A stretch of 64,000 nucleotides of DNA from an uncultured Gammaproteobacteria bacterium (GCA_964572175.1 CAZNEH010000001.1:9788-73787), one strand, 5' to 3'. Counted from the stretch's first letter, positions 1 to 48,965 are shown. Notes: a model not told the origin generated them from the letters alone. A program made the numbers and translations.

Positions 1-28
1 CGTGCAGTTGCGTAAGCAAATGCCTCGG

Positions 29-68
29 GCCGTTGTAGCTCAGTCGGTAGAGCATTCCCATGGTAAGG
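29..68 (+). tRNA. 5' fragment of a disrupted tRNA-Thr(GGU) (acceptor, D-arm, 5' anticodon stem and loop up to CCATGGTAAGG); tRNA identity breaks after position 68
   Basis: GCCGTTG-TA-GCTCAGTCGGTAGAGC-A-TTCCC-ATGGTAA-GG folds as a canonical tRNA 5' half. Its exact 3' complement (GGGAA-AGGTC-CGCGGTTCGAATCCGCG-CAACGGC-T-CCA) lies at 7219..7254, sharing the 11-bp core CCATGGTAAGG. Confidence 0.7.
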
Positions 69-180
69 AAGTGGTCTATCCAAATAAGTAATATTTTCGC
101 TAAACTTAGATAAGAAATTGCAATTTAACAAGTGAGACCGACCACTTCTATGGTGGAAGGGGTCGTTAAAACAGTCATTT

Positions 181-256
181 GCCGTTGTAGCTCAGTTGGT
201 AGAGCACACGCATGGTAAGCGTGAGGTCTGCGGTTCAATCCCGCACAACGGCTCCA
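181..256 (+). tRNA. tRNA-Thr (anticodon GGU), intact, element-borne
   Basis: Cloverleaf: acceptor GCCGTTG/CAACGGC, D-arm GCTCAGTTGGTAGAGC, anticodon stem CACGC/GCGTG with loop ATGGTAA (anticodon GGT), T-arm TCTGCGGTTCAATCCCGCA, then discriminator T and encoded CCA. Confidence 0.85.
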
Positions 257-293
257 ACTAACCAGAGCATTCATACTTCCACATAAAACAAGT

Positions 294-1196: not shown

Positions 1197-1235
1197 TATT
1201 GCCAATTTAGTTATATAAGGATATATTATCTTTAT

Positions 1236-2384
1236 ATGCAACAAGAAAAGTATGATGAAAGTGTAGTTAAAAACCAACATTATATACCAGTTGGTTTATT
1301 AAAAAATTTTATTAATTCAGATAATAAAATATTTGAAGCATTATTAAGTGTTCCTAAAATTTATCCCTCAACACCAGAGAAATCAATGTCTGCAAGATTC
1401 ATTTATGAGGATGATCATCTTGATTTAAATGCAGTAGAAAAATATTTTTCGAATATCGATTCAGAAATTGCACCTAAGGTTAAAGATGTTATAGAAGCTA
1501 TAGAAAAGTATAAAAAAAATCAGGTAGAATTTTCATATATACAAGAATTATTTGAAAAACTATTATCTATTTTTGTCGTGTTTTATTATCGTAGCGGAGC
1601 GTTACTAACTGAATTTTCAAGCATAGATTCAAAACATAAAATACCTTTATTAACAAAAAAAATTCATAATCAAAGATACATAAGTTTATTGTCGCAAACT
1701 ATAAAAGAATGTTATAAATTTGCTATTATTGAAAGTGATGAAAACTTCTTAATTAGCGATCAGTTTATTTCTACGGCTGCCTTAAAAATAAAAACTCAAT
1801 TCGCCAATATTTCTAATCGTCATATAGGAATAAAAGAAACTTTAATTTTGATACCAATATCCTCAAAGTATTATGCTGCGTATTGGCATTCTGATAGCTC
1901 ATCACTTTTATCCGAATCGGGCATAAATAAATTAGATGAATCACAAATTCATGAATTTAATGCTGTAATTATTAATAACTCTTATTTAAAATGTGTTGGT
2001 CAAAATGAAAATGATTTAAAAAAAGTTATAGATCGATACAAAATGGAGTTTCCTTCACAAGTATTTATTGGACATAGAGGTGGGGGCAGCTCAGGTTATA
2101 TTAGAAAAAAAGAAATATTTTTTTCAGAAAAAGAGAAAGAAGCATACGAATTTTTAATTCACCCCTCACAAAACATTAACGAATTTTTAAAGGCGAAATC
2201 TAATGATAAATGCCCATGTGGTAAAGAGATAAAATTTAAAAAATGTCATAGAGATATTGTTTCAAGAATAAAAATTCCTATACAAAGTTTTAAGCAGGGC
2301 GTTGATCCAACAGCATATAGAATGCCAAATGTTTCTGCTGTAGAGTTGCCAATAGATGAGTGGGGTCCTTATGCTGGAAATTAA
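1236..2384 (+). CDS. DUF4238-like protein with C-terminal SEC-C-type zinc-binding motif
   Basis: N-terminal HYIPVGLLKNF resembles the DUF4238 HY[IV]PQ..L.NF signature. C-terminus CPCGKEIKFKKCH resembles the SEC-C CPCGSGKK(Y/F)KKCC motif. Confidence 0.5.
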   Translation: MQQEKYDESVVKNQHYIPVGLLKNFINSDNKIFEALLSVPKIYPSTPEKSMSARFIYEDDHLDLNAVEKYFSNIDSEIAPKVKDVIEAIEKYKKNQVEFSYIQELFEKLLSIFVVFYYRSGALLTEFSSIDSKHKIPLLTKKIHNQRYISLLSQTIKECYKFAIIESDENFLISDQFISTAALKIKTQFANISNRHIGIKETLILIPISSKYYAAYWHSDSSSLLSESGINKLDESQIHEFNAVIINNSYLKCVGQNENDLKKVIDRYKMEFPSQVFIGHRGGGSSGYIRKKEIFFSEKEKEAYEFLIHPSQNINEFLKAKSNDKCPCGKEIKFKKCHRDIVSRIKIPIQSFKQGVDPTAYRMPNVSAVELPIDEWGPYAGN

Positions 2385-2393
2385 TATAAATAT

Positions 2394-3101
2394 ATGAATA
2401 TATTAACATTACATGAGAAACGTGAAACACTAAAGGGAACTAAAATTATTAGACTTCTAAAGCACTTAGCTGTAACTCACTATTCTTTTAGGGTTAATTA
2501 TAATGAATTATCAAAACTAATAAATATATTTGAGAAAGATGATGAAATAATATATTTAAAAAATAGAGAAAAAATAGATCGATTACTATATGAATTTTCT
2601 CGTTTATTATTAAATTATATAAGTTCAGTATCGACTTTTGTTGATCACGTTAGACGAGTTAGACATAAATTAAATAATGATAAAATTGATAGGCAGTTTA
2701 AAAAAGAATTAGATAATATATCAAAAGACGAGAATATAATTTTTTTAAAGGATTTACGTAATTACACAATACATGAAAAGTTGCCAGAAGTGGCAGCTAA
2801 TTTTACTCTTAAAAATCAAGTAAATGGTCAAAATAATAATCAGGAATTAGGCATAGTTAAGGAGGCTATACTTGAGTCGACTTATTGGACAAGAGGGTCT
2901 AAAGATTTTTTGTCAAAACAAGCAAAAATGATTCCAATAAAAAAAATATTAAATAGTCATTATCAAGTATTTAATGATTTTCAAGAAAAATTTTATAAAT
3001 TAGTTACAGAAGAATATAAAAATGAAATACAGGATTTAATCGAAGTTGAAAGACAGATGAATAAATGGATGAATAAAAAACAACCAAAAGAGGATAATTA
3101 A
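2394..3101 (+). CDS. hypothetical protein (island cargo)
   Basis: Long ORF in AT-rich coding context with no recognisable motif. Confidence 0.45.
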   Translation: MNILTLHEKRETLKGTKIIRLLKHLAVTHYSFRVNYNELSKLINIFEKDDEIIYLKNREKIDRLLYEFSRLLLNYISSVSTFVDHVRRVRHKLNNDKIDRQFKKELDNISKDENIIFLKDLRNYTIHEKLPEVAANFTLKNQVNGQNNNQELGIVKEAILESTYWTRGSKDFLSKQAKMIPIKKILNSHYQVFNDFQEKFYKLVTEEYKNEIQDLIEVERQMNKWMNKKQPKEDN

Positions 3102-3127
3102 TTCTATTTACCTCATTAGTTTAATTT

Positions 3128-3685
3128 TTAATTTTGAAAAGTTAAGATTAATTTGTTGAGAATAGTTATTAATTCTTCTTTTGCTGGCTCACCATTTAAG
3201 TTTGATATCTCTCCACTATAATACTTATCTTCGTATTTAAAATCAAAAGCAAGTGAAGAATGAGCATTTGTAAGCATAGTTCCATTTAGTTCGTAGTCTT
3301 CTTCGTAGCCAATTTGAACTTCAATGTTATTAATAGTTTTAGTAGATTTTTCCAATGGATAAGTTTCAGCATGTATATCAAGATTTTCATTGCTACTAGT
3401 TAACGCTACAGAGAAATCACTATTACCGGCTGGGCTATAAGTATAAATTCCCGCTTGAGAACTTTTTAAAGTAAAACCAGATAATTTATTTAAATTAACA
3501 CCTTGCTCTACTTCTTCATGGTTTACATTTGAAGTTTGCGAACTAGTTTTATTAGTATTTCCATCTTTTTCATCATCCTTAGGAGTTAACATTAAAATTA
3601 CAACTCCCAAGATAATAATTAGTAAAATAGCGATACCAATTTTTTCAGAAGCAATTAATTTTGGCTTCTTTTTTTCTTCTTTCAT
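3128..3685 (-). CDS. hypothetical membrane-anchored/secreted protein
   Basis: N-terminal hydrophobic helix IGIAILLIIILGVVILML follows a basic N-terminus. Ser/Thr/Asn-rich ectodomain. Confidence 0.5.
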   Translation of the reverse strand: MKEEKKKPKLIASEKIGIAILLIIILGVVILMLTPKDDEKDGNTNKTSSQTSNVNHEEVEQGVNLNKLSGFTLKSSQAGIYTYSPAGNSDFSVALTSSNENLDIHAETYPLEKSTKTINNIEVQIGYEEDYELNGTMLTNAHSSLAFDFKYEDKYYSGEISNLNGEPAKEELITILNKLILTFQN

Positions 3686-3730
3686 TTTGATTGTTCATTA
3701 ATTATTATTTTCTGCCAACCAAAAAAGGCG

Positions 3731-3854
3731 ACAGGATTAGTTGGCACTACGTAATAGTTCCCAAAGGAATTCTTACGCTCCTGCCGCCATCTCTATTCGT
3801 AAGAATAAGAGATAACGACTATGAGTCGTCCTTTGGGTTTAATTACGTAGTGCC
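3731..3854. repeat. long imperfect inverted repeat / branched stem-loop (~125 nt)
   Basis: Arms TGGCACTACGTAAT...ATTACGTAGTGCCA, CCCAAAGGA...TCCTTTGGG and CTTACG...CGTAAG are nested. An internal ACGAC-tatga-GTCGT side hairpin is also present. Confidence 0.6.
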
Positions 3855-3991
3855 ATTTACTATTATAGCAGAAAAGTAAGTAAAGTTAAGTATTTTATCT
3901 ATCTGGCATTATTAGAAGTAAATTTTTCAATTGAATATTATATAATTAATATAGAGGGAAAAAGCATTTTTTTACATATTTTTACACTTTT

Positions 3992-4387
3992 ATGAACGAT
4001 ATTGAGCAAAAAGCCTGTGAATTAAAATACTCGGGCATAAAATATAAGAAAATGTCTGAATTATTGGATGTTAATTACGATACTTTAGTTAGCTGGTTTA
4101 GAAAAGATGGGAAGATATATCAAGATTATCAGGAATATGCCATAGAAACGAATAGGCAAGCTAAATTAAGGGCTATTAATTTACTGACTAATAATGTCGA
4201 AAGAGCAATTGAAGTGCTAGTTAATGAAATGCATAATAGCGATTCTTCACAGGCAAAAATCAAAGCAGCGTGCGAGATACTAAATAGAGTTATTAAAAAT
4301 AATGAAACGCAGGAAAATGAAGAAACTATGACATGGGAGGATTATGTAACATTAAGGGAAAAAGAGATGGGGAATAACGGTAAGTAA
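3992..4387 (+). CDS. small HTH-type DNA-binding protein (putative regulator / terminase-small-like)
   Basis: KYSGIKYKKMSELLDVNYDTLVSWFRK has a helix-turn-helix character. Located within the island. Confidence 0.4.
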   Translation: MNDIEQKACELKYSGIKYKKMSELLDVNYDTLVSWFRKDGKIYQDYQEYAIETNRQAKLRAINLLTNNVERAIEVLVNEMHNSDSSQAKIKAACEILNRVIKNNETQENEETMTWEDYVTLREKEMGNNGK

Positions 4388-4672
4388 ATTTTTAAAGCTT
4401 AAATGCTACCATTATAGTAGAGGGGAAAACGCTAAAATATTAGCAAAAAAATACACTTATAGCGGCAGTGTTTAAACAACCGCTCCGAATACTGGTCTAA
4501 TGGAGAAAAAATAAAAGACCAACTATATAGATGAGGTAGCCCAGCAAGACTTGAGCACAGAGGCCTCTAGAATAAACAATCTGCTGTACCCCAAGGCGAC
4601 AAATAATTCTTTTTTAAGAGTTGTTAGTCTATTTGTCCGGGGGGAGTAATAATACATTATAATATATAATTT

Positions 4673-4834
4673 ATGTCTAAAAGAAAGAATCAATTTAGAA
4701 AACCTAAATTAATACAATATAGATCAGTTTGGTTAACTCAAAAGGGGTATGAATTATTAAGGTTAGCAAAAAAGGAAGAGAAAAAATCTATGATGGCAAT
4801 TGTTAATGAATTAATTAAGGAAAAATATAAATAG
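4673..4834 (+). CDS. ribbon-helix-helix (CopG/Arc-like) small protein, candidate excisionase/regulator (53 aa, not in ORF track)
   Basis: ATG at 4673 after a TATAAT at 4660. Translation MSKRKNQFRKPKLIQYRSVWLTQKGYELLRLAKKEEKKSMMAIVNELIKEKYK has a beta-strand then two helices. It ends 3 nt before the second integrase. Confidence 0.55.
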   Translation: MSKRKNQFRKPKLIQYRSVWLTQKGYELLRLAKKEEKKSMMAIVNELIKEKYK

Positions 4835-4837
4835 TAG

Positions 4838-5743
4838 ATGGAATTAAGAGAAGCTTTTAAACAATTTATTGTTGAAAGTCAAAATGGACGCTTTGCTTAT
4901 AATTCTGATAAAACTATTTTGAAACATAAAAATGTTTTTGAGCTTTTTGTAAAATGGATTCCGACAGAAAGAGTTCAAGATTTAAATGAAGAGCTGTTAT
5001 GGAGATATTTTAATAAAGGAGAAACTACTCGAGACTGGAAACCATCAACCGTGATAACTAATCGTACTAGTCTTTCAAGATTTTTAGATTGGTGCGTGAT
5101 TAATAAATTATTAAAAGAAAATCCTATAAAAAAAATTCCACGACCAAGATTAATTAAAAACACTCCCGACTATTATAGCGAGGAGGAAATTGACAAGATT
5201 TTGTATACTGTCAACAAATTATTTAAACGACAATTAACTAGAGCGAGAAACATGGCAATGATAGGGATTATGTTATTGGCAGGCCTTAGAAAGGGTGAAT
5301 TATTAAAACTAAAAATAACTGATGTTGATTTCAGTAATAAAGTTATAAGAATTAGAGCAGAAAATGCAAAAAATAGGAAGCCTAGGTCTCTGAATATAAG
5401 TCATAAATTAGAAGAACTACTAAAGGTTTATATTTCGTTGAGAGAGAAAAAAGGGATCAAAGCTTATAGCTTATGGGTATCATCAAATAATCATGCTCCA
5501 CTAACTGAAAATGGTTATAATCATATATTAGAAACGTTATCAGAGGGGGTTGGATTTAAGGTTAAATCTCATAAGTGTAGGCATACCTTTGCAACTTACG
5601 CATATAAAGGATGTAAAGATATTATGGCAGTAAAAGATGCCTTAGGACATGCTGATTTAAAAACCACGCTAGTTTATGCTACTCCCTTAGCTGAATCTAC
5701 TAAGTTAACTATAGAAGTTAATCCGATAAATGATTTGTTTTAA
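4838..5743 (+). CDS. tyrosine site-specific recombinase / integrase (second copy)
   Basis: HKCRHTFATYAY...GHADLKTTLVYA catalytic signature. Shares N-terminal blocks with the 294..1196 product. Confidence 0.85.
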   Translation: MELREAFKQFIVESQNGRFAYNSDKTILKHKNVFELFVKWIPTERVQDLNEELLWRYFNKGETTRDWKPSTVITNRTSLSRFLDWCVINKLLKENPIKKIPRPRLIKNTPDYYSEEEIDKILYTVNKLFKRQLTRARNMAMIGIMLLAGLRKGELLKLKITDVDFSNKVIRIRAENAKNRKPRSLNISHKLEELLKVYISLREKKGIKAYSLWVSSNNHAPLTENGYNHILETLSEGVGFKVKSHKCRHTFATYAYKGCKDIMAVKDALGHADLKTTLVYATPLAESTKLTIEVNPINDLF

Positions 5744-5789
5744 TTAAGTTTTTTTAGTATTATATTATTATTAACTAATAATAATATAA

Positions 5790-7055
5790 ATGAAAATATT
5801 TAATAAACACTTACATGACATTACTTATGATGAAATAATATCTTTTTGCAATGAAGGGCATATAGAAAGTTTATATTTAGATTACAAAGAAGATGTGAGT
5901 AGATCAAATTCAGTTGCTAAAACTTCAGCGGCAATGGCAAATTCTTTTGGCGGAATAATAATAATAGGTGTTGCTGATGACAATAATTATCCTAAATTAC
6001 CTGTAAAGGGTCTAGATAAATTAACAGAGGAGCAAATTACTCAAATAATTTCAGATAACACATTTCCACTAATTACACCAGAAATAAAAGTATATAAAAA
6101 AGCTAATCGATATTTAGGTATAGTTAGAGTTAAGCCATCGCAATCTACTCCAATTTTTTTTACTAAAGATAATACTATTCCTGTTAGAGTTAATAATATT
6201 ACAAAAAAATTTGAAGATAATGCAGATTTAAAACAGTTAGATTGGTTATGGAATAATAGAAAAAAATCTATAGAACTTTATGAAAATTGTTTATCATTTG
6301 CCAGGGATACTTTCGAAAAACAACGAAGTAATTTACATGGATTGGAATCTTTAATTGAAGCAAAAAAAGATCCATATTCTCCCCGCATGGTTAACTCTAA
6401 ACGCTTGTTAAGAGATCCGCATTATTTTCCAAATAGAATCGAAATATTTTCTCGACCTATTTATCCTGATATTACCCCCTTGAAAAATCCGAAAGAATTA
6501 AATGATATTTTTCCGAAAATTAATGTAAATGTAGATGAAAATTGCGGAGAGTTTCCAAGAAATATTCACAAAAGACGACGTATTTCCGGTGGTAGTATTA
6601 TTCAAGAATTAAAATCTAGAGGTTTAATTTATACCGAAATTAATCAATATGGATTATATTATCATAATGAAAAAATAATTATGCAAGATTATGATTTAAT
6701 GATTGATGAACATTATAACATTGACCATTTAACAAGCGAAGCTATAGCAGTATTAAAATGGCCAGTATTAAAAGGAGTGTTTATTTCCTTTTTAGAGTCT
6801 TTAAAACTATTTTATAAAGAAATTGAATATTATGGATATATTGAAATTGGTATAAAGCTTTTCTCTGTAAATACTATGCAATTAATTAAGGAGCAAATAG
6901 AAACTGAATTATATGATTCTCCTTTAGGCGCTTACTCAGTTGATGATTATATAAATTGGGATAGTGGAATTATCAATGTTTCAGAAATTGATAATAATTT
7001 AATAAATGATCTCGAAGAATACATTGATGATTTATTCGATTATAAAAAAAGATAA
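5790..7055 (+). CDS. AlbA_2 (Schlafen-like / divergent AAA_4) DNA-binding domain protein
   Basis: ESLYLDYKED...AAMANSFGGIIIIGVADD matches the AlbA_2 E..lEfK...AfaNt.GG.iiiGv.d signature. Confidence 0.6.
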   Translation: MKIFNKHLHDITYDEIISFCNEGHIESLYLDYKEDVSRSNSVAKTSAAMANSFGGIIIIGVADDNNYPKLPVKGLDKLTEEQITQIISDNTFPLITPEIKVYKKANRYLGIVRVKPSQSTPIFFTKDNTIPVRVNNITKKFEDNADLKQLDWLWNNRKKSIELYENCLSFARDTFEKQRSNLHGLESLIEAKKDPYSPRMVNSKRLLRDPHYFPNRIEIFSRPIYPDITPLKNPKELNDIFPKINVNVDENCGEFPRNIHKRRRISGGSIIQELKSRGLIYTEINQYGLYYHNEKIIMQDYDLMIDEHYNIDHLTSEAIAVLKWPVLKGVFISFLESLKLFYKEIEYYGYIEIGIKLFSVNTMQLIKEQIETELYDSPLGAYSVDDYINWDSGIINVSEIDNNLINDLEEYIDDLFDYKKR

Positions 7056-10789: not shown

Positions 10790-10869
10790 TATTTCTTAAT
10801 ATAAAAAAACTCACCGCGCGACTCGCTTGATGACGAATCGCTTGGTGAGGGGTCCCGGGGCTTGGATCC

Positions 10870-11076
10870 CTAGGCGGTCATGGGGAGGTCAGAGTTCAGG
10901 AAGGCCTGGGAGGTCGCCATGAAGGCTTCCATTTCCCCGGAGGCGGCGATGGCACCTAGGTCGACCTGGTGAAGCAGGGCGCTGCCCTCTTGTTTGTTGT
11001 AGACCAGGTTCGGTTGTCCGTCGAGGGTGAGGATGCCCACAGTTCCTTGCATTTCGAACTTCCACTTGTCGTTCAT
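10870..11076 (-). CDS. GC-rich small protein (68 aa) in a solitary cassette
   Basis: Minus-strand promoter TTGACA (11148..11143) - N17 - TAAGGT (11125..11120). The ORF has high GC (~60%, by eye) in a ~35% GC genome. Downstream minus-strand terminator hairpin CTCACC...GGTGAG plus T7 at ~10800..10850. Confidence 0.5.
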   Translation of the reverse strand: MNDKWKFEMQGTVGILTLDGQPNLVYNKQEGSALLHQVDLGAIAASGEMEAFMATSQAFLNSDLPMTA

Positions 11077-11389
11077 GTCGGCTCACTTTCAGGGCTTTGC
11101 CCTTTTGAGATTCACCCCAACCTTACCCATTTATAATGAAATTGTCAACCTATCTACGGTAGACAGGCTTTGTTTGGGGGTATGGAGGGTTTTGGAGGTG
11201 GGGGAGGGGGATTTGGAAGTGGCTCAACAAAAAAGCCGACAGTTTTTGTCGGTGTTTGTGGAGTTGTTGAGGAGTGAAATTGTTTGATATTTGCTAAGCT
11301 TGATTTAAAGTCTTATTAAGTGTTATAATATATTTACTTGTGGATAAACATAGATATTTAATAAATTCATTATTATTTAAATAAATACA

Positions 11390-25860: not shown

Positions 25861-25909
25861 GTTTTTATTTTAGGGCGTTATTCTATTATAGCAAAAAAAA
25901 GAGCCCTCG

Positions 25910-26166
25910 TCAAGATGAATCGAGGAGGGCGAGAGGATCGTCCTGGCGGACGTGTTGTGATCGCTTGAGGGTCGGCAGCCAGTTGGGTACCTCGCGAAGC
26001 TGGGTGATGGTTCGTTGCCCAGAGATGCCGTGGTAGCCTTGGAGTGGTCCAGAGCGAATCTTGGTCCACCGGGGATGGTTGGTGAAGACCCACCAGCCAC
26101 GTTCGTTTTTGACTCGCAAGAAGATGATGGTGTGTCCGTCTTTGCGAGAGACGTAGGATTCGAACA
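25910..26166 (-). CDS. GC-rich small protein (85 aa) in a solitary cassette
   Basis: Minus-strand promoter TTGACT (26223..26218) - N17 - TATAAG (26200..26195), GGAG ribosome-binding site, ATG at 26166 (MFESYVSRKDGHTIIFLRVKNERGWWVF...). High local GC. The 123-aa track ORF is trimmed to this start. Confidence 0.5.
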
Positions 26167-26241
26167 TGAGTTTCTCCGGGTTGAGGTGTAGTTTTCTTAT
26201 ATCATTGATTTTAACTTGAGTCAAGGGTATAATAAAGACAT

Positions 26242-27843: not shown

Positions 27844-27889
27844 TGTTATAAGTATAGCCTAATTCTTGAATAAAAAAAAGCAGCCCCCA

Positions 27890-28111
27890 CTAGTGGCAGA
27901 TCTCGGAGATCGTTTCGCCACAGCGAGGGCAGTAGAAGGGATAGATGCCAGACGGACGCCAGGCCTTGGTGACACTTCCACGAAGAGCAGTGATGCATTG
28001 GCGGCATCCACGAACCTTGACTTGAAGGACTTGCTTGTCATGGAGCTTGGTTCCGCAGCCGATGCAGAACTTGTTGTCGTTCTGAGAGCTGAATTGGCAG
28101 CATGGCTTCAT
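27890..28111 (-). CDS. GC-rich Cys-rich zinc-ribbon small protein (73 aa) in a solitary cassette
   Basis: Minus-strand TTGACT (28171..28166) - N16 - TAAACT. Ribosome-binding site GGGGGA, then ATG at 28111. MKPCCQFSSQNDNKFCIGCGTKLHDKQ...CRQC...CPRCGETISEICH has multiple CxxC pairs. Confidence 0.5.
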   Translation of the reverse strand: MKPCCQFSSQNDNKFCIGCGTKLHDKQVLQVKVRGCRQCITALRGSVTKAWRPSGIYPFYCPRCGETISEICH

Positions 28112-28242
28112 GAGTTCCCCCTGAAAGAGCTTGAGTTGTACCAAGTTTACTAGAAATAGAGATAAAGTCAAATTGTGGATAAGATTTTGGGGATATGGTA
28201 TACTAAAAGAGTATTAATTTAAAATAATTAACTTAAAAAATT

Positions 28243-40820: not shown

Positions 40821-41186
40821 ATGACTAAAAAAAGTAAAGTAATTAGTATTTCATCATTATTAGCAGTAGTTGGGATCGTTGGAGCCCTAGGCTTTGCCGG
40901 AGTCAGCTATGCTCATGAAAGAAATGATGTTGATCATCAAGAGCATCGAGCAGAAATGGATCAAATTTTTGCTGATCGTGACTACGAAGCTTGGAAAGAA
41001 GTAATTGAATCTAAGCCAAAGATCACTGATTATGTAAATGAAGAAAACTTTGATCGTTTTGCAGAGATGCATGAGTTAATGCAAAGCGGCGATAAAGAAG
41101 CAGCTGATGAGATTCGTAAAGAACTAGGCTTGCCTGAGAAAATGGGAAAGAAAGGAAAGGGCATGCACGGAAAAAGATTTCAATAA
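40821..41186 (+). CDS. small secreted hypothetical protein
   Basis: Signal peptide. Followed by the terminator ATCCCC-N14-GGGGAT plus T-run. Confidence 0.5.
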   Translation: MTKKSKVISISSLLAVVGIVGALGFAGVSYAHERNDVDHQEHRAEMDQIFADRDYEAWKEVIESKPKITDYVNEENFDRFAEMHELMQSGDKEAADEIRKELGLPEKMGKKGKGMHGKRFQ

Positions 41187-41195
41187 CATATAAAA

Positions 41196-41228
41196 ATCCC
41201 CCGACTCCTCCGCCAGGGGATTTTTTAT
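41196..41228. terminator. bidirectional rho-independent terminator
   Basis: A5-ATCCCCC...GGGGAT-T7, between convergent genes. Confidence 0.65.
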
Positions 41229-41238
41229 TTACAGATAA

Positions 41239-42129
41239 TTATCTAATGAATTCGCTTTGATATTCAGGGTTTATTTTTTTAGTGAAGCAAATTTCACCAG
41301 TGTCGTGCTCCCAGGTGTTTGCGGGAATGGTCATGTCGTACTTATTACTGAATTCGTAGCCATAGCTAGGGAAGTTGAACTCGGTACAGATTTGATAATG
41401 GGTTTCGTCAGTAATAGTGTATTGATAAGCTTCTTTGTAATCGTCGAAATCAGTAATATTTTCTGGGAGAGCTTTTTGATTATTATAGTAAGAGCTAATA
41501 CTGTAGTCTAGAGATTCTAGGTCATTAATTTTATCTTGGTCGATGTTGCGAAGTCTTTGATTAGCTGGAGAGCCAACAAAGAAGAATCCGGCGATTATAG
41601 CAGCTAGAACAACTATAGAGGTAAAGATAAATAAAAAGCGAAGTTGTTTGTCGTATTTATTTTTTAAGTCAACAATATAGTAACCGAAAACAATTCCGGC
41701 GACAAAGAAGACGGTTAAAACTTTTAAGGCAAAAGCCATGGTTAGGCCGCCGTATAAGAAGCCGATTAATAAGGCAATTAAGTTTCCGATAATTAATAGG
41801 GCAGTAACAAATAAAGTGAAGTAAACTAACCACTTACGTAAAAACATTTCTTTTTTCCAAGCATCTTTGGCATAGCTTTTTTTAATTAGCCAGGTGCTGA
41901 TTACATAAACAGGGTAGGTGATAATTAAAAAGGCCAGTCCACTGCGAATGAGGTCGTAAGCTCCTTCGATTTGATAGGAGTGGATGTAGTCCTCGGCTAA
42001 TAGGTCTGGCATTAATAGGTTGATAATTTGGAAGATAACCACCATAAAGCTGATAGCACTGGCATACAGCATAATGACGGAAAGGAGGTGCATAAACACG
42101 TCCTTGGCGGAGATTGGTTTTTGTTGCAT
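41239..42129 (-). CDS. integral membrane hypothetical protein
   Basis: Multiple TM helices. Confidence 0.55.
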   Translation of the reverse strand: MQQKPISAKDVFMHLLSVIMLYASAISFMVVIFQIINLLMPDLLAEDYIHSYQIEGAYDLIRSGLAFLIITYPVYVISTWLIKKSYAKDAWKKEMFLRKWLVYFTLFVTALLIIGNLIALLIGFLYGGLTMAFALKVLTVFFVAGIVFGYYIVDLKNKYDKQLRFLFIFTSIVVLAAIIAGFFFVGSPANQRLRNIDQDKINDLESLDYSISSYYNNQKALPENITDFDDYKEAYQYTITDETHYQICTEFNFPSYGYEFSNKYDMTIPANTWEHDTGEICFTKKINPEYQSEFIR

Positions 42130-42191
42130 ATTTTTTTATTTTAATGATTCTTTAATTATAACACAATATCTATAAAATAAATAAATTTTAG

Positions 42192-42220
42192 TTGACAGGG
42201 GTAGTTTATTTAGGTAAGAT
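42192..42220 (+). promoter_or_regulatory. sigma-70-type promoter TTGACA-N17-TAAGAT (first cassette)
   Basis: TTGACA 42192..42197, GGGG-containing spacer, TAAGAT 42215..42220. AGGAGG ribosome-binding site at 42241. Confidence 0.6.
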
Positions 42221-42252
42221 ATTTACGAATCCACAAGCAAGAGGAGGAAATC

Positions 42253-42507
42253 TTGCAAGGACAGACACAGAGAGACAAGCATCCGGCCAAGCATGGCTGG
42301 GTCAAGGTCAAGAAGCTGGTGAACAACTCTCGTGGCCGACGGCGCCCGAAGCGCGTCTGGGTCCAGAGCGGCGATGCTCCTGGTAAGAAGGAGGAGCGCA
42401 TCAGGGCCAAGAAGAAGCGCGAGGCTCAGCAGAGAGCGGCAGCTCAAGAGGCCCGGAGGAAAAGGGATGAAGAGGAGCGCCGAGCAGCACGCCGCCGCTG
42501 GTGGTAG
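42253..42507 (+). CDS. highly basic Lys/Arg-rich small protein (84 aa), TTG start
   Basis: AGGAGG lies 6 nt upstream of the TTG start. KRK/RRR-rich sequence. GC-rich codons. Confidence 0.45.
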   Translation: MQGQTQRDKHPAKHGWVKVKKLVNNSRGRRRPKRVWVQSGDAPGKKEERIRAKKKREAQQRAAAQEARRKRDEEERRAARRRWW

Positions 42508-42533
42508 CTGGTTTTCAGCGACGAGTGTGAATA

Positions 42534-42578
42534 CCCCCCCCTGCAGCTCTACGGAGTTGACAGGGGTTATTTTTTTAT
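42534..42578 (+). terminator. terminator hairpin CCCCTG-N17-CAGGGG plus T-run, with the next promoter's -35 (TTGACA) embedded in the 3' arm
   Basis: CCCCCCCTG cagctctacggagttga CAGGGG TTATTTTTTT, followed by TATACT 18 nt after TTGACA. Confidence 0.55.
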
Positions 42579-42624
42579 TCTATACTTACATTACAATTTT
42601 TCAAACCGACGAAGGAAGATTCCC

Positions 42625-42834
42625 ATGAAGATGCTCAAGTGCGAGAACTGTGGATACCCTATGCCAGTATCTGGCAAAATCAACGAAGATGATGGCCTGC
42701 GGTGCCCGATCTGCAACGGGCTGATGAAGAAGCCTGGGGCCGGGGAGCCGACGACCGAGGTGGACATCACCGAACGTCCCTTCATTCCGCCGCGGCCACT
42801 GCCGCCGCCGACCGAGATCCCGGCCTACGCTTAG
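42625..42834 (+). CDS. zinc-ribbon small protein (69 aa)
   Basis: CENC...CPIC pairs. Ribosome-binding site GAAGGAAG. Pro-rich C-terminus. Confidence 0.5.
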   Translation: MKMLKCENCGYPMPVSGKINEDDGLRCPICNGLMKKPGAGEPTTEVDITERPFIPPRPLPPPTEIPAYA

Positions 42835-42961
42835 GCCAAGGACAACTTCGCGGGCATTAGCCCCACGACCCTAGGATGAGATTCATCTGATGGGTCGCTT
42901 TTTTTGACTAAAACAGGGTGGGGTGGTAGGCTAAAGTTAGCGTAAACCAAGGGAGGTACGC

Positions 42962-43348
42962 ATGTGTGAGAAAAGGTATTTCTTCGATGATCGTCAGTCC
43001 ACCCAGTTCAAGTGCGTCTGCGGGGGATCGGTCGTGGTTCTGGAGCATGATGCTCAGGCCGAGAAGATCGGGTGTCAGTCCTGCGGCAAGACGGCTCGGG
43101 TTCGTCCGAGTGCTTCTCCAGACACTCTGATCGAGTGCCAGCCGGAGAAGTGGTCGGGGACGAACTTCTACCTCGAGAACCATGGGCCCGACAAGGGCTG
43201 GACTCACTGCGGCCAGCCCATGGTGATCATCGGTCGTCTGGATGCTCACCTGTGGCCAGTTGGCTGCCAGGTCTGTGGAGCCATGGGCCATGTCGGACAC
43301 AACTCCACGCCCGAGGACTGGCCGCCCGACGGCAGCTGCTCTGGCTAG
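42962..43348 (+). CDS. Cys-rich small protein, family A member 1 (128 aa)
   Basis: Ribosome-binding site AAGGGAGG. Shares HCG(Q/R)(P/T)MVIIG...GCQVCG...H.G.N...W.P with the 45593..45934 product. Confidence 0.55.
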   Translation: MCEKRYFFDDRQSTQFKCVCGGSVVVLEHDAQAEKIGCQSCGKTARVRPSASPDTLIECQPEKWSGTNFYLENHGPDKGWTHCGQPMVIIGRLDAHLWPVGCQVCGAMGHVGHNSTPEDWPPDGSCSG

Positions 43349-43370
43349 AGCACACAACGACTTGTTCGAT

Positions 43371-43404
43371 GACCTATATTGGGGGATATAGGTCATATTT
43401 TTTT
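43371..43404 (+). terminator. rho-independent terminator (GACCTATAT family)
   Basis: GACCTATAT-tggggg-ATATAGGTC plus T-run. Confidence 0.7.
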
Positions 43405-43486
43405 CCGCCTTCGCAGACTGCGGCGGACAAGTTTGACTCTAATGGGGTGGGATGGTAGGGTTAAATTAACAAGGGAGGATTTAGAA

Positions 43487-43882
43487 ATGTCTAAGAGAAG
43501 TGAACCTTTTGACGCTTGCTTGGCTGGCTGGATGGAGTTGGAAGAGATGATGCTTCGGGATCGGCCCCCAGTTCGAGCGAGGAAGCTCAAGAAAGGGATG
43601 CTGAAGCGCTGGTCCTGGGTGACCAATTCCCGCGGGAAAAAGGTTCGGCGTAAGACCTGGGGTAAGCCTGGTCCGCCGCCGAAGCCTCGTTCGGGTAATC
43701 TAGTGGCCTTCAACGCTTCGGATCAGTGGCGGCTGCACCGGGCGGCTGGAGTTAAGAGCCGGAGGGACTGGGATAGGCTGACCACTTGCCAACAGGACGA
43801 GGTTTTTATGAAGGCCCTGGAAGATGGTTTGGAGCCCTTTAGCCTGGTCGATGGCTATCGGCACTTCTGCCGTGGCGACTAA
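43487..43882 (+). CDS. basic small protein (131 aa), start trimmed to the ATG with a ribosome-binding site
   Basis: AGGGAGG lies 7 nt upstream of the ATG at 43487. Promoter TTGACT-N17-TAGGGT at 43433..43461. Confidence 0.5.
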   Translation: MSKRSEPFDACLAGWMELEEMMLRDRPPVRARKLKKGMLKRWSWVTNSRGKKVRRKTWGKPGPPPKPRSGNLVAFNASDQWRLHRAAGVKSRRDWDRLTTCQQDEVFMKALEDGLEPFSLVDGYRHFCRGD

Positions 43883-43991
43883 CCCCTGTTCAACCCGAGT
43901 GGTTGACAGGGGGTATTTTTATTTGGGTTGACCCGGGGAGGGTTTTGTGCTAAGGTTAGGGCGCCTAATTCACAAAGGGAGGGCACACAAA

Positions 43992-44462
43992 ATGCTCGGT
44001 TTGATTTCCAGAGGCTGGCATATGTTCATGGGTCTGTGGGTGGAAGATATCGAGACGGTTCGCGGTGTTCCGCTGAAGCCTGGAGTGGTTCACGACCTCT
44101 TCATCTGCGGTGGCTGGCCGTTCAAGGCCGAGATCGTGCCGGAGTACGTGGCGATCAGGCCCAGGGGCGAGACCTGGCCGCTGGACTACGGTATGATGTC
44201 CAAGAGCTTCCGGCACCGTGACTCCAAGGCGCTGCAGGCCTACAACTGGTCCATGGTGCGTCGGACCGATGGCGGTCCCATGTTCGAGTGCGACCACAAC
44301 ATCTTCGTCCTCCGCGTCCACAAGGGTGAACTTCCTCGACATGATCACTTCATCGCACGCGAGGGGCGTGATTTCTCTGAGGCCCAGGTCTTAGAGGTCA
44401 TCGACGACGAGAAGGATCTGATCATGTGCGTCTGGATCCGCGAGGCCGGGCTCGTCGAGTAG
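43992..44462 (+). CDS. small protein, family B member 1 (156 aa)
   Basis: AGGGAGG ribosome-binding site. N-terminus MLGLISRGWHMFMGLWV is paralogous to MLSWLARPWNSFIGLWV of the 45252..45554 product. The ~70-bp promoter/5'UTR is near-identical to the one at 45182..45251. Confidence 0.55.
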   Translation: MLGLISRGWHMFMGLWVEDIETVRGVPLKPGVVHDLFICGGWPFKAEIVPEYVAIRPRGETWPLDYGMMSKSFRHRDSKALQAYNWSMVRRTDGGPMFECDHNIFVLRVHKGELPRHDHFIAREGRDFSEAQVLEVIDDEKDLIMCVWIREAGLVE

Positions 44463-44484
44463 CGGCGAAGACAACTAGTTCGAT

Positions 44485-44518
44485 GACCTATATCGGGGGG
44501 ATATAGGTCGTTTTTTTA
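44485..44518 (+). terminator. rho-independent terminator (GACCTATAT family)
   Basis: GACCTATAT-cgggggg-ATATAGGTC-G-T7. Confidence 0.7.
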
Positions 44519-44586
44519 TTGACTTAGAGTGGGGGAGATGTTAGGGTAAAAATAGTGTTCAACTTCAACCCCGAGCTCGAGGTGAG

Positions 44587-44799
44587 ATGATGAAAGGTGC
44601 TGCTCTCAGCTGTGTTCCCTGTGACTGGACGGCGACTGATGTGTCCAATGCAAGGTTCTGTCCGTTCTGTGGAGATGATCTGGAGAAGAAGGGAGTCCTG
44701 GGCAAGAAGGTTCCCTTCCGGGTGAAGCTCTTGGCCCGCGTGCCCGTGACCGCGAGGCTCAGGCGCCTGGCTTCTATCTTCGGGGAAGACAAGCGCTAG
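44587..44799 (+). CDS. zinc-ribbon small protein (70 aa)
   Basis: CVPC...CPFC pairs. Promoter TTGACT-N17-TAGGGT at 44519..44547. Confidence 0.5.
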   Translation: MMKGAALSCVPCDWTATDVSNARFCPFCGDDLEKKGVLGKKVPFRVKLLARVPVTARLRRLASIFGEDKR

Positions 44800-44927
44800 A
44801 CAGCGACGACGAGGTAAGTGTGGGCCGTGCCCGCCATAGTCCTGATTCATATCGGGACGACGGCGGGTCTATTTTTTTGACTAAAAAAACAGGGGATGTT
44901 AGAGTATTATTATCAAGGGGGAAAGAC

Positions 44928-45143
44928 ATGGATTTTAGTATTTTTCTAGTGGCAATGATCGTGGCTTCACTGGGCCTGGGTAAACACTTCGTTTTCAGGG
45001 GCGCAGAAAAAATGGATCGCTTCAAAAAGAATACGGGGCGCACCGTTACAGAGCGAGAAGAGGTACACGAGGCAGAGGGCCTTCTTCTGGCAGGGGGCAT
45101 CCTGATTTTCTTGGCGTTCAATGCCGCGATGTTCATTCTTTAG
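44928..45143 (+). CDS. small two-TM membrane protein (71 aa)
   Basis: Ribosome-binding site AAGGGGGA, ATG at 44928. Two hydrophobic helices. Promoter TTGACT-N17-TAGAGT at 44877..44905. Confidence 0.45.
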   Translation: MDFSIFLVAMIVASLGLGKHFVFRGAEKMDRFKKNTGRTVTEREEVHEAEGLLLAGGILIFLAFNAAMFIL

Positions 45144-45251
45144 CCCGCTACAGTCTTCGGACCACGGCGGGTTCTTTTTTTATTTGGGTTGACTCGGGAG
45201 GGTTTTGGTGCTAAGGTAAGGGCGCCTAATTCACAAGGGAGGGCATGTAAG

Positions 45252-45554
45252 ATGTTGTCATGGTTGGCTAGACCGTGGAATTCATTCATTGGTCTGTGGG
45301 TTCATGGTGCCCCTCAGATCGAGGATCAGCAGGTTTCCGAGCCGCTGCAGGTCGACGAGGTCGAGCTGGTGGTCGGGGAGACCTTCTTTTTCCAGAGGGA
45401 CAAGTTCTTCATCGTGATCACCTGGAGTGCTCGCAGCGCGCGGCGTCCGGTGGTCGGCGATCGGATCAAGGGATCGTCTGGGCAGGACGCGATCGTGCTG
45501 TCGACCATTCCTGGAGAGAAGAACAAGTACCTCTGCCGGATCATGATCGACTAG
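45252..45554 (+). CDS. small protein, family B member 2 (100 aa)
   Basis: AGGGAGG ribosome-binding site. Paralogue of the 43992..44462 product. Co-transcribed with the downstream family A gene, with no intervening terminator. Confidence 0.55.
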   Translation: MLSWLARPWNSFIGLWVHGAPQIEDQQVSEPLQVDEVELVVGETFFFQRDKFFIVITWSARSARRPVVGDRIKGSSGQDAIVLSTIPGEKNKYLCRIMID

Positions 45555-45592
45555 GCAGAGCAGAACTACACGAATCACACGAGGAGGTGTGC

Positions 45593-45934
45593 ATGTCGGA
45601 AGCGAGGTACCACAAGAACCACTTCGGTCTGAAGGAGGGCTTCGAGCACTGCGGCCGGACCATGGTGATCATCGGATGTGGCGATCGTCTGGAGACGCTC
45701 GGCTGCCAGGTCTGCGGTCACACGCAGCACTCTGGCATGAACACGGAAAACTGGACGCCCACGTCGACGGATGACGAGGACGACGATCCGGAGGAGGAGT
45801 CAGCGCCTCGGCCCTGGCTTCGAGATTCGGGTCCCAGCTCCTGCGAAGGGTGTACTCGTTACGGGGAGACCTGTTCCGGGTCTACCTTCGGAGAATCGTG
45901 CACCGACGCAGATGATGGACACCGTAGCTGGTGA
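45593..45934 (+). CDS. Cys-rich small protein, family A member 2 (113 aa)
   Basis: AGGAGG ribosome-binding site, ATG at 45593. Motif EHCGRTMVIIGCGDRLETLGCQVCGHTQHSGMN is paralogous to the 42962..43348 product. Confidence 0.55.
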   Translation: MSEARYHKNHFGLKEGFEHCGRTMVIIGCGDRLETLGCQVCGHTQHSGMNTENWTPTSTDDEDDDPEEESAPRPWLRDSGPSSCEGCTRYGETCSGSTFGESCTDADDGHRSW

Positions 45935-45940
45935 TTCCAT

Positions 45941-45976
45941 GACCTACACCGGGGGGATGTAGGTCGTATTTTTTTA
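45941..45976 (+). terminator. rho-independent terminator (GACCTA family)
   Basis: GACCTACA-ccgggggga-TGTAGGTC plus T-run. Confidence 0.7.
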
Positions 45977-46036
45977 TTTTGACTAATTTGGGGTGGGGTG
46001 TTAAGGTTAAATTGAAAATAGTAACTTAGAACACTT

Positions 46037-46714
46037 ATGAAAAAATTATCCCTCGCGATCTTGGTATTAGCGTTTTTTGCGTTGACTATGCCAAGTAGCT
46101 CGTCCGCAGCTGTTAGAACTGTGACGACAATTAAAAAAGCTTCAGGTTTAAAAGCTGATATCTCCGCAGACTCTGATTCCAAACTTAGATGGACCAAGGT
46201 TTCCAAGACCAAGTATTATAAAGTTCAGCTTAAAAAGAAAAACGGTAAAAAAGTTAAGACTTGGACAAAGCGGAAAAAGAATTGGGTAAAGATTACGGAT
46301 AATGTAAAAGAGGGGAAGAAGTATAAGTATAGAGTGAGGGGTTGTAAAAAGAATAAATGTGGGAAGTGGTCGAAATATAAATATTTTAATACTAATGATT
46401 TAGTTGAAGAAACTGAAGAAGAGGTAGTTGTTAGTGAAGAGAGTAATGAACAATCAGAAGAGGTGGTTACTACGCCAGTAGTTGAGCCTACTCCAGATCC
46501 GACTCCTGATCCTGAGCCAACGCCTGAGCCGGAACCCACTCCTGAGCCAGAGCCAGTTAGCTATGAGTGTAGCGCAAATATTTATAATTGTAGTGACTTT
46601 AATTATCAGTCAGAGGCACAAGATGCTTATGAGCAGTGTTTAGCTGAAGTGGGGGATGATATTCATGATTTGGATAGGGATGGGAATGGGTTGGCTTGCG
46701 AGAGTTTAAAATAG
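46037..46714 (+). CDS. secreted protein: signal peptide, Lys-rich FN3-like domain, PEPTPEP linker, C-terminal Excalibur calcium-binding domain
   Basis: Driven by a promoter TTGACT-aatttggggtggggtgt-TAAGGT identical in style to the GC-rich cassettes, but the gene itself is low-GC. C-terminal CSDF...DRDGNGLACE matches the Excalibur motif. Confidence 0.7.
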   Translation: MKKLSLAILVLAFFALTMPSSSSAAVRTVTTIKKASGLKADISADSDSKLRWTKVSKTKYYKVQLKKKNGKKVKTWTKRKKNWVKITDNVKEGKKYKYRVRGCKKNKCGKWSKYKYFNTNDLVEETEEEVVVSEESNEQSEEVVTTPVVEPTPDPTPDPEPTPEPEPTPEPEPVSYECSANIYNCSDFNYQSEAQDAYEQCLAEVGDDIHDLDRDGNGLACESLK

Positions 46715-46719
46715 AAGAT

Positions 46720-47448
46720 ATGAAAAAAAATAAATTTGAAGATAATTTATTTTATAAAAATTTTTATGGTAAAAATGGTTTTTTAACCCCTATAATGATT
46801 AAAATGGTTAAGGAGGGGCGTGGAAAAGATTCTGTTAATTTAGAAAAAGATGAACAGTCTACAGTAGATTGTTTTAAATTAGTAAAAGAAATTGATTTAA
46901 AAATAAGAGATTTAAATTATTGTATATACTTGATTAAATATTATCCTAGTAATAAAAAATTACGAGATAATATAACTAGGCACGATTACATAATTTATCA
47001 TTTAGAATATTTTTATATAAATGTAGTAGCGTTATTTGATAGGATTTTAAAATTATCAAATTTTGTACATGACATTGGCTTGTCTGATAAATATGTTAAA
47101 TTAGATATTCTTATTACAAATAAGAAGATAAGTAAGCAGCACGTTAGTGCATTAAAAAAGTTCAATAAGTCGATAGAAGAAATAAGAGGTATACAAAATA
47201 ATATAAAGCACAAAGAAAAATTGAAAGACCCAGGAATAAAGAACGCACAGTTACTAGAGTCTCTTTATAGGGTTAATAATTTAGACAAAAAAAGTGCAGC
47301 ATACTTGGGTTCTAAAAAAGAGTATAATAAATATATAAAAGATAAAGTGCAAAAAATAAAAGAATTTAACGATACTATAGAAGTAGTAGTTTTTGATTTA
47401 GTCGATTCTTTTTACAGCACGTATGAATCTAATTTTATTAATAAGTAA
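46720..47448 (+). CDS. hypothetical protein
   Basis: ATG at 46720 preferred over the upstream TTG. No recognisable domain. Confidence 0.45.
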   Translation: MKKNKFEDNLFYKNFYGKNGFLTPIMIKMVKEGRGKDSVNLEKDEQSTVDCFKLVKEIDLKIRDLNYCIYLIKYYPSNKKLRDNITRHDYIIYHLEYFYINVVALFDRILKLSNFVHDIGLSDKYVKLDILITNKKISKQHVSALKKFNKSIEEIRGIQNNIKHKEKLKDPGIKNAQLLESLYRVNNLDKKSAAYLGSKKEYNKYIKDKVQKIKEFNDTIEVVVFDLVDSFYSTYESNFINK

Positions 47449-48155: not shown

Positions 48156-48965
48156 ATGAAAAAAGAAAAAATGAAAAGAAATAATAAGATAGTATTATTT
48201 CAAAGTAAAAAAATAAGGCGGGTTTGGCATAAAGAAGAATGGTATTATTCGGTTATTGATATCATTGATATTTTAACTGATAGCGCAAACTCAAGGGATT
48301 ATTGGTATCAAATGAAGAAAAGAGTTGGTGATGAAGAAAAAATTGAACTATCGACAATTTGTCGACAGTTGAAATTAAAGGCACTAGATGGAAAGATGAG
48401 ACTTACAGATTGTGCTAGCACAGAAGGAATTTTTAGGATTATTCAGTCAATTCCATCTCCTAAGGTCGAGCCATTTAAGAGATGGTTAGCTAAAGTTGGA
48501 AAAGAAAGATTAGACGAGATAGAGAATCCAGAACTAGCTCAAGAAAGAATGAAGAGAATATATGAACAAAAAGGATATTCTAAAGAATGGATTGATAAAC
48601 GATTAAGGGGAATTGCTATTAGACAGAATTTAACAGATGAGTGGAGAGAAAGAGGGGTTAAGAGACCTAATAATTACGCTATTTTAACAGCTGAGATTTC
48701 TAAGGCGACTTTTGGATTAACTCCAAGTGAATATAGAAGCGTAAAAGGATTAGATAAAAAGAATTTACGTGATTACATGACAGATCTTGAGTTAATATTT
48801 ACTATGTTAGGAGAAAGAGTGACGACGGAAATTTCTAGCCAAGAAAAACCAAAAAATATGCCGTCGCATAAAAAAGTTGCTAAGCGCGGAGGTGGCGTAG
48901 CTGGTAAGGCAAGAAAAGATACGGAAAAAGAATTAGGGCGAAGTGTTATTTCTGGAAATTTATAA
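48156..48965 (+). CDS. dinD: DinD-like DNA-damage-inducible protein (Bro-N/DinD family)
   Basis: N-terminal block KIRRVWHKEEWYYSVIDIIDILTDS and C-terminal block LTAEISKATFGLTPSEYRSVKGLDKKNLRDYMTDLELIFTMLGE align with E. coli DinD blocks recalled from memory. Confidence 0.55.
   Translation: MKKEKMKRNNKIVLFQSKKIRRVWHKEEWYYSVIDIIDILTDSANSRDYWYQMKKRVGDEEKIELSTICRQLKLKALDGKMRLTDCASTEGIFRIIQSIPSPKVEPFKRWLAKVGKERLDEIENPELAQERMKRIYEQKGYSKEWIDKRLRGIAIRQNLTDEWRERGVKRPNNYAILTAEISKATFGLTPSEYRSVKGLDKKNLRDYMTDLELIFTMLGERVTTEISSQEKPKNMPSHKKVAKRGGGVAGKARKDTEKELGRSVISGNL

Follow-up and report, generated by a model that had tools for sequence, protein, structure and literature searches.

A tandem array of self-contained small GC-rich gene units in a streamlined genome, with a promoter G-tract that probably reflects common descent

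The cassettes of integrons are promoterless and are read from a single common promoter, Pc, and the early or host-takeover regions of phages (SPO1, T4, T5) combine repeated strong promoters with many small genes. A moron, as defined in PMC3594210, is an extra gene that carries its own promoter and its own terminator and deviates in GC content. Here we describe a locus with partial likeness to each of these, a tandem array of small GC-rich open reading frames (ORFs) at positions 42192-46007 of a 64,000-nt stretch of DNA (GCA_964572175.1, CAZNEH010000001.1:9788-73787, filed under an uncultured Gammaproteobacteria bacterium; hereafter the window, with positions counted from its first letter). All nine array promoters carry a run of G between their -35 and -10 elements, which an earlier, sequence-only reading had proposed as a repressor operator co-regulating the whole array.

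The array is ~3.8 kb long and comprises eight transcription units with nine small GC-rich ORFs, all on the + strand. Every ORF except O9 has its own promoter upstream, and every unit closes with a hairpin followed by a T-run. The window has ~35% GC, with G exceeding C on the + strand throughout, and GC rises to ~57% between 42.2 and 46.0 kb. We consider it fairly probable that the array consists of self-contained units encoding nine ORFans and that the shared G-tract stems from the common descent of a few promoter modules. Its features are, in order (UTR, untranslated region; GC3, GC content at third codon positions):

42192-42220, + strand: promoter P1, TTGACA-17-TAAGAT, with GGGG directly after the -35; a copy of the D4 module AGTTGACAGGGGT
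42253-42507, + strand: O1, 84 amino acids, TTG start, Arg/Lys-rich, GC3 0.72; distant paralog of O4 (NSRG..R..W motif in common)
42538-42578, + strand: terminator T1, CCCCCTG...CAGGGG hairpin and T-run; the 3′ arm holds TTGACA (42557), the -35 of P2
42557-42586, + strand: promoter P2, TTGACA-18-TATACT, fused with T1
42625-42834, + strand: O2, 69 amino acids, zinc-ribbon-like but under the Pfam cut-off, GC3 0.77
42866-42905, + strand: terminator T2, nested hairpin GACCCTA..TGGGTC and T-run; single, outside the families
42904-42932, + strand: promoter P3 of the D1 family, TTGACT-17-TAGGCT, TGn; G-tract GGGTGGGGTGG
42962-43348, + strand: O3, 128 amino acids, Cys-rich; paralog of O9
43369-43428, + strand: terminator T3 of the D2 family, GACCTATAT hairpin and T-run, then an extra CCGCC..GGCGG hairpin
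43433-43461, + strand: promoter P4 of the D1 family, TTGACT-17-TAGGGT; G-tract GGGGTGGG; ortholog on contig L119
43487-43882, + strand: O4, 131 amino acids, the sole cassette gene with an outside homolog (P0061)
43883-43924, + strand: terminator T4, CCCCTG...TTGACAGGGGG and T-run, with an embedded TTGACA lacking a -10; ~1-2 mismatches to the L119 ortholog
43928-43956, + strand: promoter P5 of the D3 family, TTGACC-17-TAAGGT; GGGGAGGG begins 2 nt past TTGAC
43992-44462, + strand: O5, 156-amino-acid ORFan, GC3 0.80; only the first 17 amino acids and the promoter/UTR in common with O8
44483-44518, + strand: terminator T5 of the D2 family
44519-44547, + strand: promoter P6 of the D1 family, TTGACT-17-TAGGGT; G-tract GTGGGGGAG
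44587-44799, + strand: O6, 70 amino acids, zinc-ribbon-like
44829-44878, + strand: terminator T6 of the CCCGCC...GGCGGG family, hairpin and T-run
44877-44905, + strand: promoter P7 of the D1 family, TTGACT-17-TAGAGT; GGGG begins 10 nt past TTGAC
44928-45143, + strand: O7, 71 amino acids, GC3 0.57; both ends hydrophobic, probably a membrane protein (by eye)
45144-45181, + strand: terminator T7 of the CCCGC...GCGGG family, hairpin and T-run
45189-45217, + strand: promoter P8 of the D3 family, TTGACT-17-TAAGGT; G-tract GGGAGGG
45252-45554, + strand: O8, 100 amino acids, first gene of the sole two-gene unit
45593-45934, + strand: O9, 113 amino acids, second gene of the O8/O9 unit, with its own Shine-Dalgarno site and no promoter
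45939-45976, + strand: terminator T9 of the D2 family, bearing a compensatory C-G pair
45979-46007, + strand: promoter P9 of the D1 family, TTGACT-17-TAAGGT, GGGGTGGGG; serves the resident AT-rich fn3/Excalibur gene at 46037-46714

All nine promoters are predicted to be of the sigma-70 type, with a -35 close to TTGACA, a spacer of 16-18 nt and a TAnnnT -10 (9/9); the -35 and -10 are invariant in the promoter alignment of the array. P3 to P9 follow the narrower pattern TTGACy-17-TA[AG][AG][GC]T, six of them with TA[AG]G[GC]T and P7 with TAGAGT, and these seven of the nine also have a TGn extended -10, found neither in P1 nor in P2. Resident promoters, considered over the whole window, are mostly TGnTATAAT with a weak -35, several of them with very short leaders of 6-8 nt; their TATAAT thus stands against TA[AG]G[GC]T in the cassettes.

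The promoters are related to each other, as the sequence-only reading had held, and fall into three lineages: the D1 family (five copies, 63-78% identical over 41 nt), the D3 family (two copies, 89% identical over 63 nt including the UTR, with homology reaching 17 codons into O5 and O8) and the TTGACAGGGG type (two copies). The D4 repeat, AGTTGACAGGGGT, is in T1 and T4 the 3′ arm of the terminator hairpin. G-runs are real features of the spacers, but the position given for them earlier, 6-8 nt after the -35 in six of eight promoters, fits four of the nine. The tract starts 6-7 nt past TTGAC in P3, P4, P6 and P9, 2 nt in P5 and P8, 1 nt in P1 and P2, and 10 nt in P7. Two promoters named as exceptions, at 42558 and 44877, both carry GGGG. 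These offset classes follow the promoter lineages, and the sharing of the tract is therefore a matter of common descent, not of independent retention; since the promoters are homologous copies, the shared tract is no independent evidence of function. At its 3′ end, GTG or ATG is part of the TGn extended -10, which most resident promoters also have. The 154 nt of spacer hold about 9 of the array's GGGG loci, which number roughly 27, and GGGGNGGG occurs 10 times in the window (2.9 expected), three times in array spacers.

The terminators are similarly modular. In all eight, a G+C hairpin and then a T-run follow the stop codon, with predicted folding energies between -13 and -30 kcal/mol; relative to shuffled sequences, the z-scores run from -2.2 to -4.1. 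Three reusable families had been noticed before and are borne out here, namely GACCTATAT (D2, three copies), CCCCTG...TTGACAGGGG (two copies, with loops of 17 and 18 nt) and CCCGCC...GGCGGG (two copies), next to the single T2. We found one compensatory change in the D2 family (U-A to C-G) and one double change in the T1/T4 family, a small sample. The claim that two terminators overlap the -35 of the next promoter holds for T1/P2, where the hairpin's 3′ arm includes the TTGACA at 42557, but not for 43883-43925: no -10 goes with the TTGACA embedded in T4 (43904), and the -35 of P5 is another hexamer, TTGACC at 43928, just past the T-run. A scan with the palindromic terminator pattern was too unspecific to be informative. 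At T3, an inverted repeat (ACTTGT at 43360, ACAAGT at 43427) brackets the terminator and the extra CCGCC..GGCGG hairpin and is paired in the minimum-free-energy fold of 43360-43432.

The most telling comparison came from the one outside homolog of O4, P0061, for which the search gives 54% identity and an alignment of 124 codons 56%. Its contig is L119, 634 bp long and from another metagenome sample in ENA (ERZ24794666). This reads from the tail of an AT-rich gene (GC3 0.30, looking by eye like a cysteine-synthase C-terminus) directly into TTGACT and on through the orthologs of P4, O4, T4 and P5. Homology to the window starts exactly at the -35; the window has O3 and T3 upstream in place of the AT-rich gene, so the cassette does not have the same surroundings in the two. 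Identity between them is 85% for the P4 module and 90% for the T4+P5 module, whereas the synonymous sites of O4 differ by 53% (synonymous divergence dS 0.91, nonsynonymous divergence dN 0.38, dN/dS 0.41). The regulatory modules have thus changed far less than neutral sites, evolving 5-9 times slower than synonymous sites. Within P4, TTGACTCTA is identical at 9/9 positions, as are GATG and the 18-nt UTR with its Shine-Dalgarno site (TTAAATTAACAAGGGAGG, 18/18), and the -10 hexamer agrees at 5/6. The substitutions cluster in the G-tract, ATGGGGTG versus GGAGTGGT, where 6/8 positions differ; in P5, GGGGAGGG is changed to GGGGATGG.

Outside the array we found three solitary cassettes, which bring the number of cassette ORFs to twelve (O1-O9 and S1-S3):

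10800-11148, - strand: S1, promoter TTGACA-17-TAAGGT (11148), ORF at 10870-11076 (68 amino acids, GC3 0.80), strong terminator
25880-26230, - strand: S2, ORF at 25910-26167 (85 amino acids); the terminator embeds TTGACG, the -35 of the promoter of a resident amidase gene
27860-28171, - strand: S3, promoter TTGACT-16-TAAACT (28171), ORF at 27890-28111 (73 amino acids, Cys-rich)

Their spacers lack the G-tract, in agreement with the sequence-only reading, and S1 has TGGGGTG just past its -10. The amidase promoter within the S2 terminator (25880-25935, - strand; TTGACG-17-TGcTATAAT) is a fusion of the T1/P2 type, making two cases in which the 3′ arm of a terminator supplies the -35 of the next promoter. 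Just upstream of the S1 promoter, on the opposite strand (11170-11215, +), lies a long G-rich tract, GGGGGTATGGAGGGTTTTGGAGGTGGGGGAGGGGG, that does not fit a canonical G-quadruplex.

The twelve cassette ORFs differ from their surroundings in composition and signals. Their GC3 is 0.57-0.80, versus 0.15-0.45 (mostly 0.15-0.35) in the listed resident protein-coding ORFs, and a Shine-Dalgarno-like motif precedes 11/12 of them (GGAGG in six) versus 4/52 resident genes. Cassette genes stop with TAG (9), TAA (1) or TGA (2), resident genes with TAA (40), TAG (10) or TGA (2). The spread in GC3 would fit cassettes of differing residence times. Several of the encoded proteins, among them O2, O3, O6, O9 and S3, are Cys-rich and zinc-ribbon-like; O1 and O4 are basic. 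O1 and O4 are paralogs with 28% identity over 79 amino acids, O3 and O9 with 50% over 54, and each pair keeps one terminator family. The array therefore grew partly by duplicating coding sequence together with terminator, and protein divergence afterwards went much further than that of the signals. O5 and O8, with promoter, UTR and first 17 codons in common, also speak for growth by duplication.

Searches for relatives returned little. In 5.8 billion protein clusters O5 had no match besides itself, and the same was true of a profile of O3/O9 in 1.84 billion representatives; the one other match, P0059, was rejected as a repeat-protein artefact. No family in Pfam, PHROG or PADLOC scored above cut-off for the cassette proteins, the phage and plasmid collections gave no DNA or protein match (tblastn, blastn), and the O4-family profile had no match in viral contigs. 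A single-sequence AlphaFold model of O5 was unusable (predicted local distance difference test score 39.5).

The regulatory modules were sought as exact patterns, in a genome set of species representatives that evidently lacks the source genome. These scans turned up no additional copies of the modules in genomes, metagenomes or viral contigs: the D2 terminator and P5 UTR patterns had 0 matches in the genome contig collection, three conserved modules none in viral contigs, and the D1 G-tract promoter pattern two in the metagenome contig collection, both unrelated. In viral contigs the latter pattern matched nine stretches with ~5 distinct sequences, about the chance number by a rough estimate assuming ~60 Gb. 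Among the viral stretches, IMGVR_UViG_3300043580_000084 and IMGVR_UViG_3300043502_000004 (L003, L006, L011; 62% GC) carry TTGACCCGGGGGAGGGGTGGGGGGTAGGGT with identical flanks, the former contig once on each strand, with one of these copies opening its stretch. Over its first 15 nt TTGACCCGGGGGAGGGGTGGGGGGTAGGGT nearly matches P5 (TTGACCCGGGGAGGG), and these contigs have no protein similarity to the array ORFs.

Taken together, the array is built of units with four parts: a predicted promoter of the housekeeping-sigma type (TTGACy, 17 nt, TGn, TA[AG]G[GC]T), a 5′ UTR that is short and has a strong Shine-Dalgarno site, a coding sequence, and a terminator that would insulate it from the unit behind. 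The module lineages would have spread by duplication and recombination, together with coding sequences and sometimes apart from them. The G-tract would then be a mark of descent, its 3′ end part of the TGn element and, in the TTGACAGGGG type, the 3′ arm of the preceding terminator hairpin, with the spacer constrained at most for G-richness or avoidance of C and holding no sequence-specific operator. The promoters and terminators, as predicted, would be active, and the cassettes would have been acquired from a GC-rich source and be strongly and independently expressed. The conserved modules may double as homology patches for reshuffling cassettes, as suggested by the reuse of modules, the different surroundings in L119 and the position of its breakpoint right where a module starts.

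Several points weigh against this reading of the G-tract and the units. GGGG is present in 8/9 array spacers versus 2/28 credible spacers of resident genes (Fisher p = 1e-5), the mean spacer G fraction is 0.46 in the array versus 0.21 in resident genes (Mann-Whitney p = 1e-4), and the L119 ortholog has lost GGGGTGGG, yet its spacer is still G-rich (8 G in 17 nt versus 9 in the window). Common descent may therefore explain the G-richness of the spacers only in part, with some constraint on composition remaining. Promoter and terminator activity is predicted. The conservation argument would draw its strength from one ortholog pair, with a contig of 634 bp. Paralogous modules that convert one another could also give the appearance of purifying selection. 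Finally, the cassettes also show habits of the resident genes (TGn promoters, rare TGA stops), which would fit a long association with the lineage as well as a recent import.

The alternative that survives best, although we still hold it unlikely, is that the G-rich spacer is a structural or compositional element that tunes the strength or the opening of promoters for the housekeeping holoenzyme (through duplex stiffness, avoidance of C or a G-quadruplex on the non-template strand) and is selected for composition, not sequence. The G-richness kept in L119 despite the change of motif speaks for it, as does the near absence of C from array spacers (5%). P3 and P4 moreover fit a two-tetrad G-quadruplex pattern. 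However, this pattern is absent from L119 and from most promoters, the window holds no canonical (G3+) motif, and P2 and P7 have just 22-29% G in their spacers. A G-quadruplex as the promoter element was accordingly rejected.

An operator for one repressor, possibly tied to the adjacent extracytoplasmic function (ECF) sigma/anti-sigma pair and co-regulating the whole array, is improbable on these data, although the tract lies between -35 and -10, a common binding place for repressors, and G-runs are enriched in array over resident spacers. In the D1 alignment, spacer columns 7-13 are also more uniform than columns 1-6. Checking positional conservation, on which the sequence-only reading had made its proposal depend, gave a divided answer: the G-tract is enriched beyond chance, but its offsets of 1, 2, 6-7 and 10 nt vary by lineage. 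A sequence-specific operator should rank among the best-conserved parts of a promoter; in the P4 ortholog the motif is gone while all other promoter elements are kept, and the G-tract being the least conserved part, an operator is unsupported. GGGGTGGGG, for its part, is a mirror repeat and neither a dyad nor a direct repeat. The ECF pair, suggested as the regulator, is an unlikely one: in the relative L113 it adjoins the DUF5671-domain gene, which is the left-flank gene of the array in the window, and there is no array. ECF promoters are of the AAC/CGT type, whereas the array promoters are of the housekeeping TTGAC/TAnnnT type, and we rejected an assignment to ECF sigma factors. We also found no recognisable Pfam DNA-binding regulator among the array-encoded proteins.

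The setting of the array is cellular. Its left-flank gene encodes a DUF5671-domain protein whose homologs are annotated as Patescibacteria, one of them 47% identical in Candidatus Kerfeldbacteria; the host of the array is an AT-rich, streamlined Patescibacteria (candidate-phyla-radiation) genome. In an independent Logan assembly (run SRR8146440), a contig of 11.5 kb runs across both array junctions and is identical to the window, so the switch in composition is not chimeric and an assembly chimera is ruled out. The neighbours are metallophosphatase/FG-GAP, ECF sigma, DUF5671, fn3/Excalibur and MGMT-like genes and a GreA region. A Bro-N domain protein 2 kb downstream (48156-48965), of a family often linked to phages, is the only phage-suggestive neighbour. 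Between it and the array, a 250-amino-acid ORF of 24% GC (46696-47448) overlaps the end of the fn3/Excalibur gene and has no match in Pfam or PADLOC. Among the scanned window proteins no recombinase or phage gene adjoins the array, and within ~20 kb on either side there are no phage structural, replication or integration genes. An origin from a diversity-generating retroelement or other retroelement was rejected, as no reverse transcriptase was seen among these proteins.

The nearest tyrosine recombinase (Phage_integrase) genes, at 294-1196 and 4838-5743, are 36 kb off. They belong to a region (1-7055; 24-30% GC) that also contains a tRNA-Thr gene (181-256), a DUF4238 protein and a Schlafen/AlbA_2 protein and is probably an integrated island, possibly defence-related.

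Three relatives with a homolog of the DUF5671-domain protein (L113-L115; 47-54% identity) have, over 20 kb, neither an array nor cassettes rich in GC. L114 contains a GC-rich patch that is non-coding and has, by eye only, the look of a structured RNA. Another contig (L120, from NCBI GCA_046766335.1; 1177 bp, compared with window positions 41000-42330) is from a close relative with ~85% nucleotide identity. It stops 30 nt upstream of the start of the DUF5671-domain gene, exactly at the array boundary in the window, a break that may reflect variable content at the array site; as the contig ends before this boundary, it is uninformative on the presence of the array.

A further reading, doubtful at present, takes the units as an undescribed kind of mobile cassette: GC-rich ORFan units running from promoter to terminator, whose modules serve both as expression signals fitted to the resident machinery (TGn promoters, rare TGA stops) and as homology handles, integron-like but without integrase or attC. 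Such handles may let a genome gain and duplicate cassettes, and let these pass from one chromosomal site or one genome to another, and the source could be a GC-rich virus or plasmid specialised on these bacteria. That the hairpins and G-tracts are instead recombination sites of an integron-like capture system and not expression signals is very improbable: the cassettes are discrete units, solitary ones are scattered in the window, L119 homology starts right at the edge of a module although the surroundings differ, and the window holds two tyrosine recombinases, but these are 36 kb from the array, next to a tRNA and an AT-rich island, short G+C stems with T-runs look like terminators, each cassette has its own promoter, unlike integron cassettes, and the candidate GTT heptamers at promoter ends (GTTAAGG, GTTAGGG) end in G and not in the pyrimidine of the integron R′ core, GTTRRRY (judged by eye only), so that we rejected an integron, no IntI, attI or Pc being adjacent.

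A streamlined AT-rich genome that keeps a dozen small GC-rich genes without relatives among billions of proteins is an unusual setting, and from one metagenome to the other the regulatory modules are kept far better than the proteins encoded with them. If the units are mobile or were acquired serially, they would open a new way for genes to enter candidate-phyla-radiation bacteria and be a source of fast-evolving small proteins, possibly for conflict with phages or host cells. The array also offers natural promoter, Shine-Dalgarno and terminator parts for organisms without characterised expression signals.

Compared with known systems, the array has in common with integron arrays the tandem, co-oriented, small and mostly ORFan genes of foreign composition and a stem-loop at the 3′ end of each cassette. 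It differs from them in having no adjacent IntI or attI, no attC core by eye, and a promoter and terminator per cassette. The early regions of phages are similar in their many small ORFans, their near-consensus promoters alike beyond the hexamers and their interspersed terminators, but the array has no phage context, and the phage records and viral contigs searched held nothing similar to it in sequence or protein. By sequence, the array has every defining feature of ordinary bacterial TGn promoters and of intrinsic terminators, although its -10 hexamers are G-rich (TAGGGT, TAAGGT) where resident promoters have TATAAT. Phage morons (Juhala/Hendrix) resemble the array units in having their own promoter and terminator and a GC content unlike that of their neighbours, and by definition they would be the closest known kind. 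Morons sit in phage or prophage genomes, usually singly, whereas here eight tandem and three solitary units are chromosomal and lack a prophage context. The elements are thus ordinary promoters and terminators, and the array is an unusual, moron-like cassette variant that is apparently undescribed.

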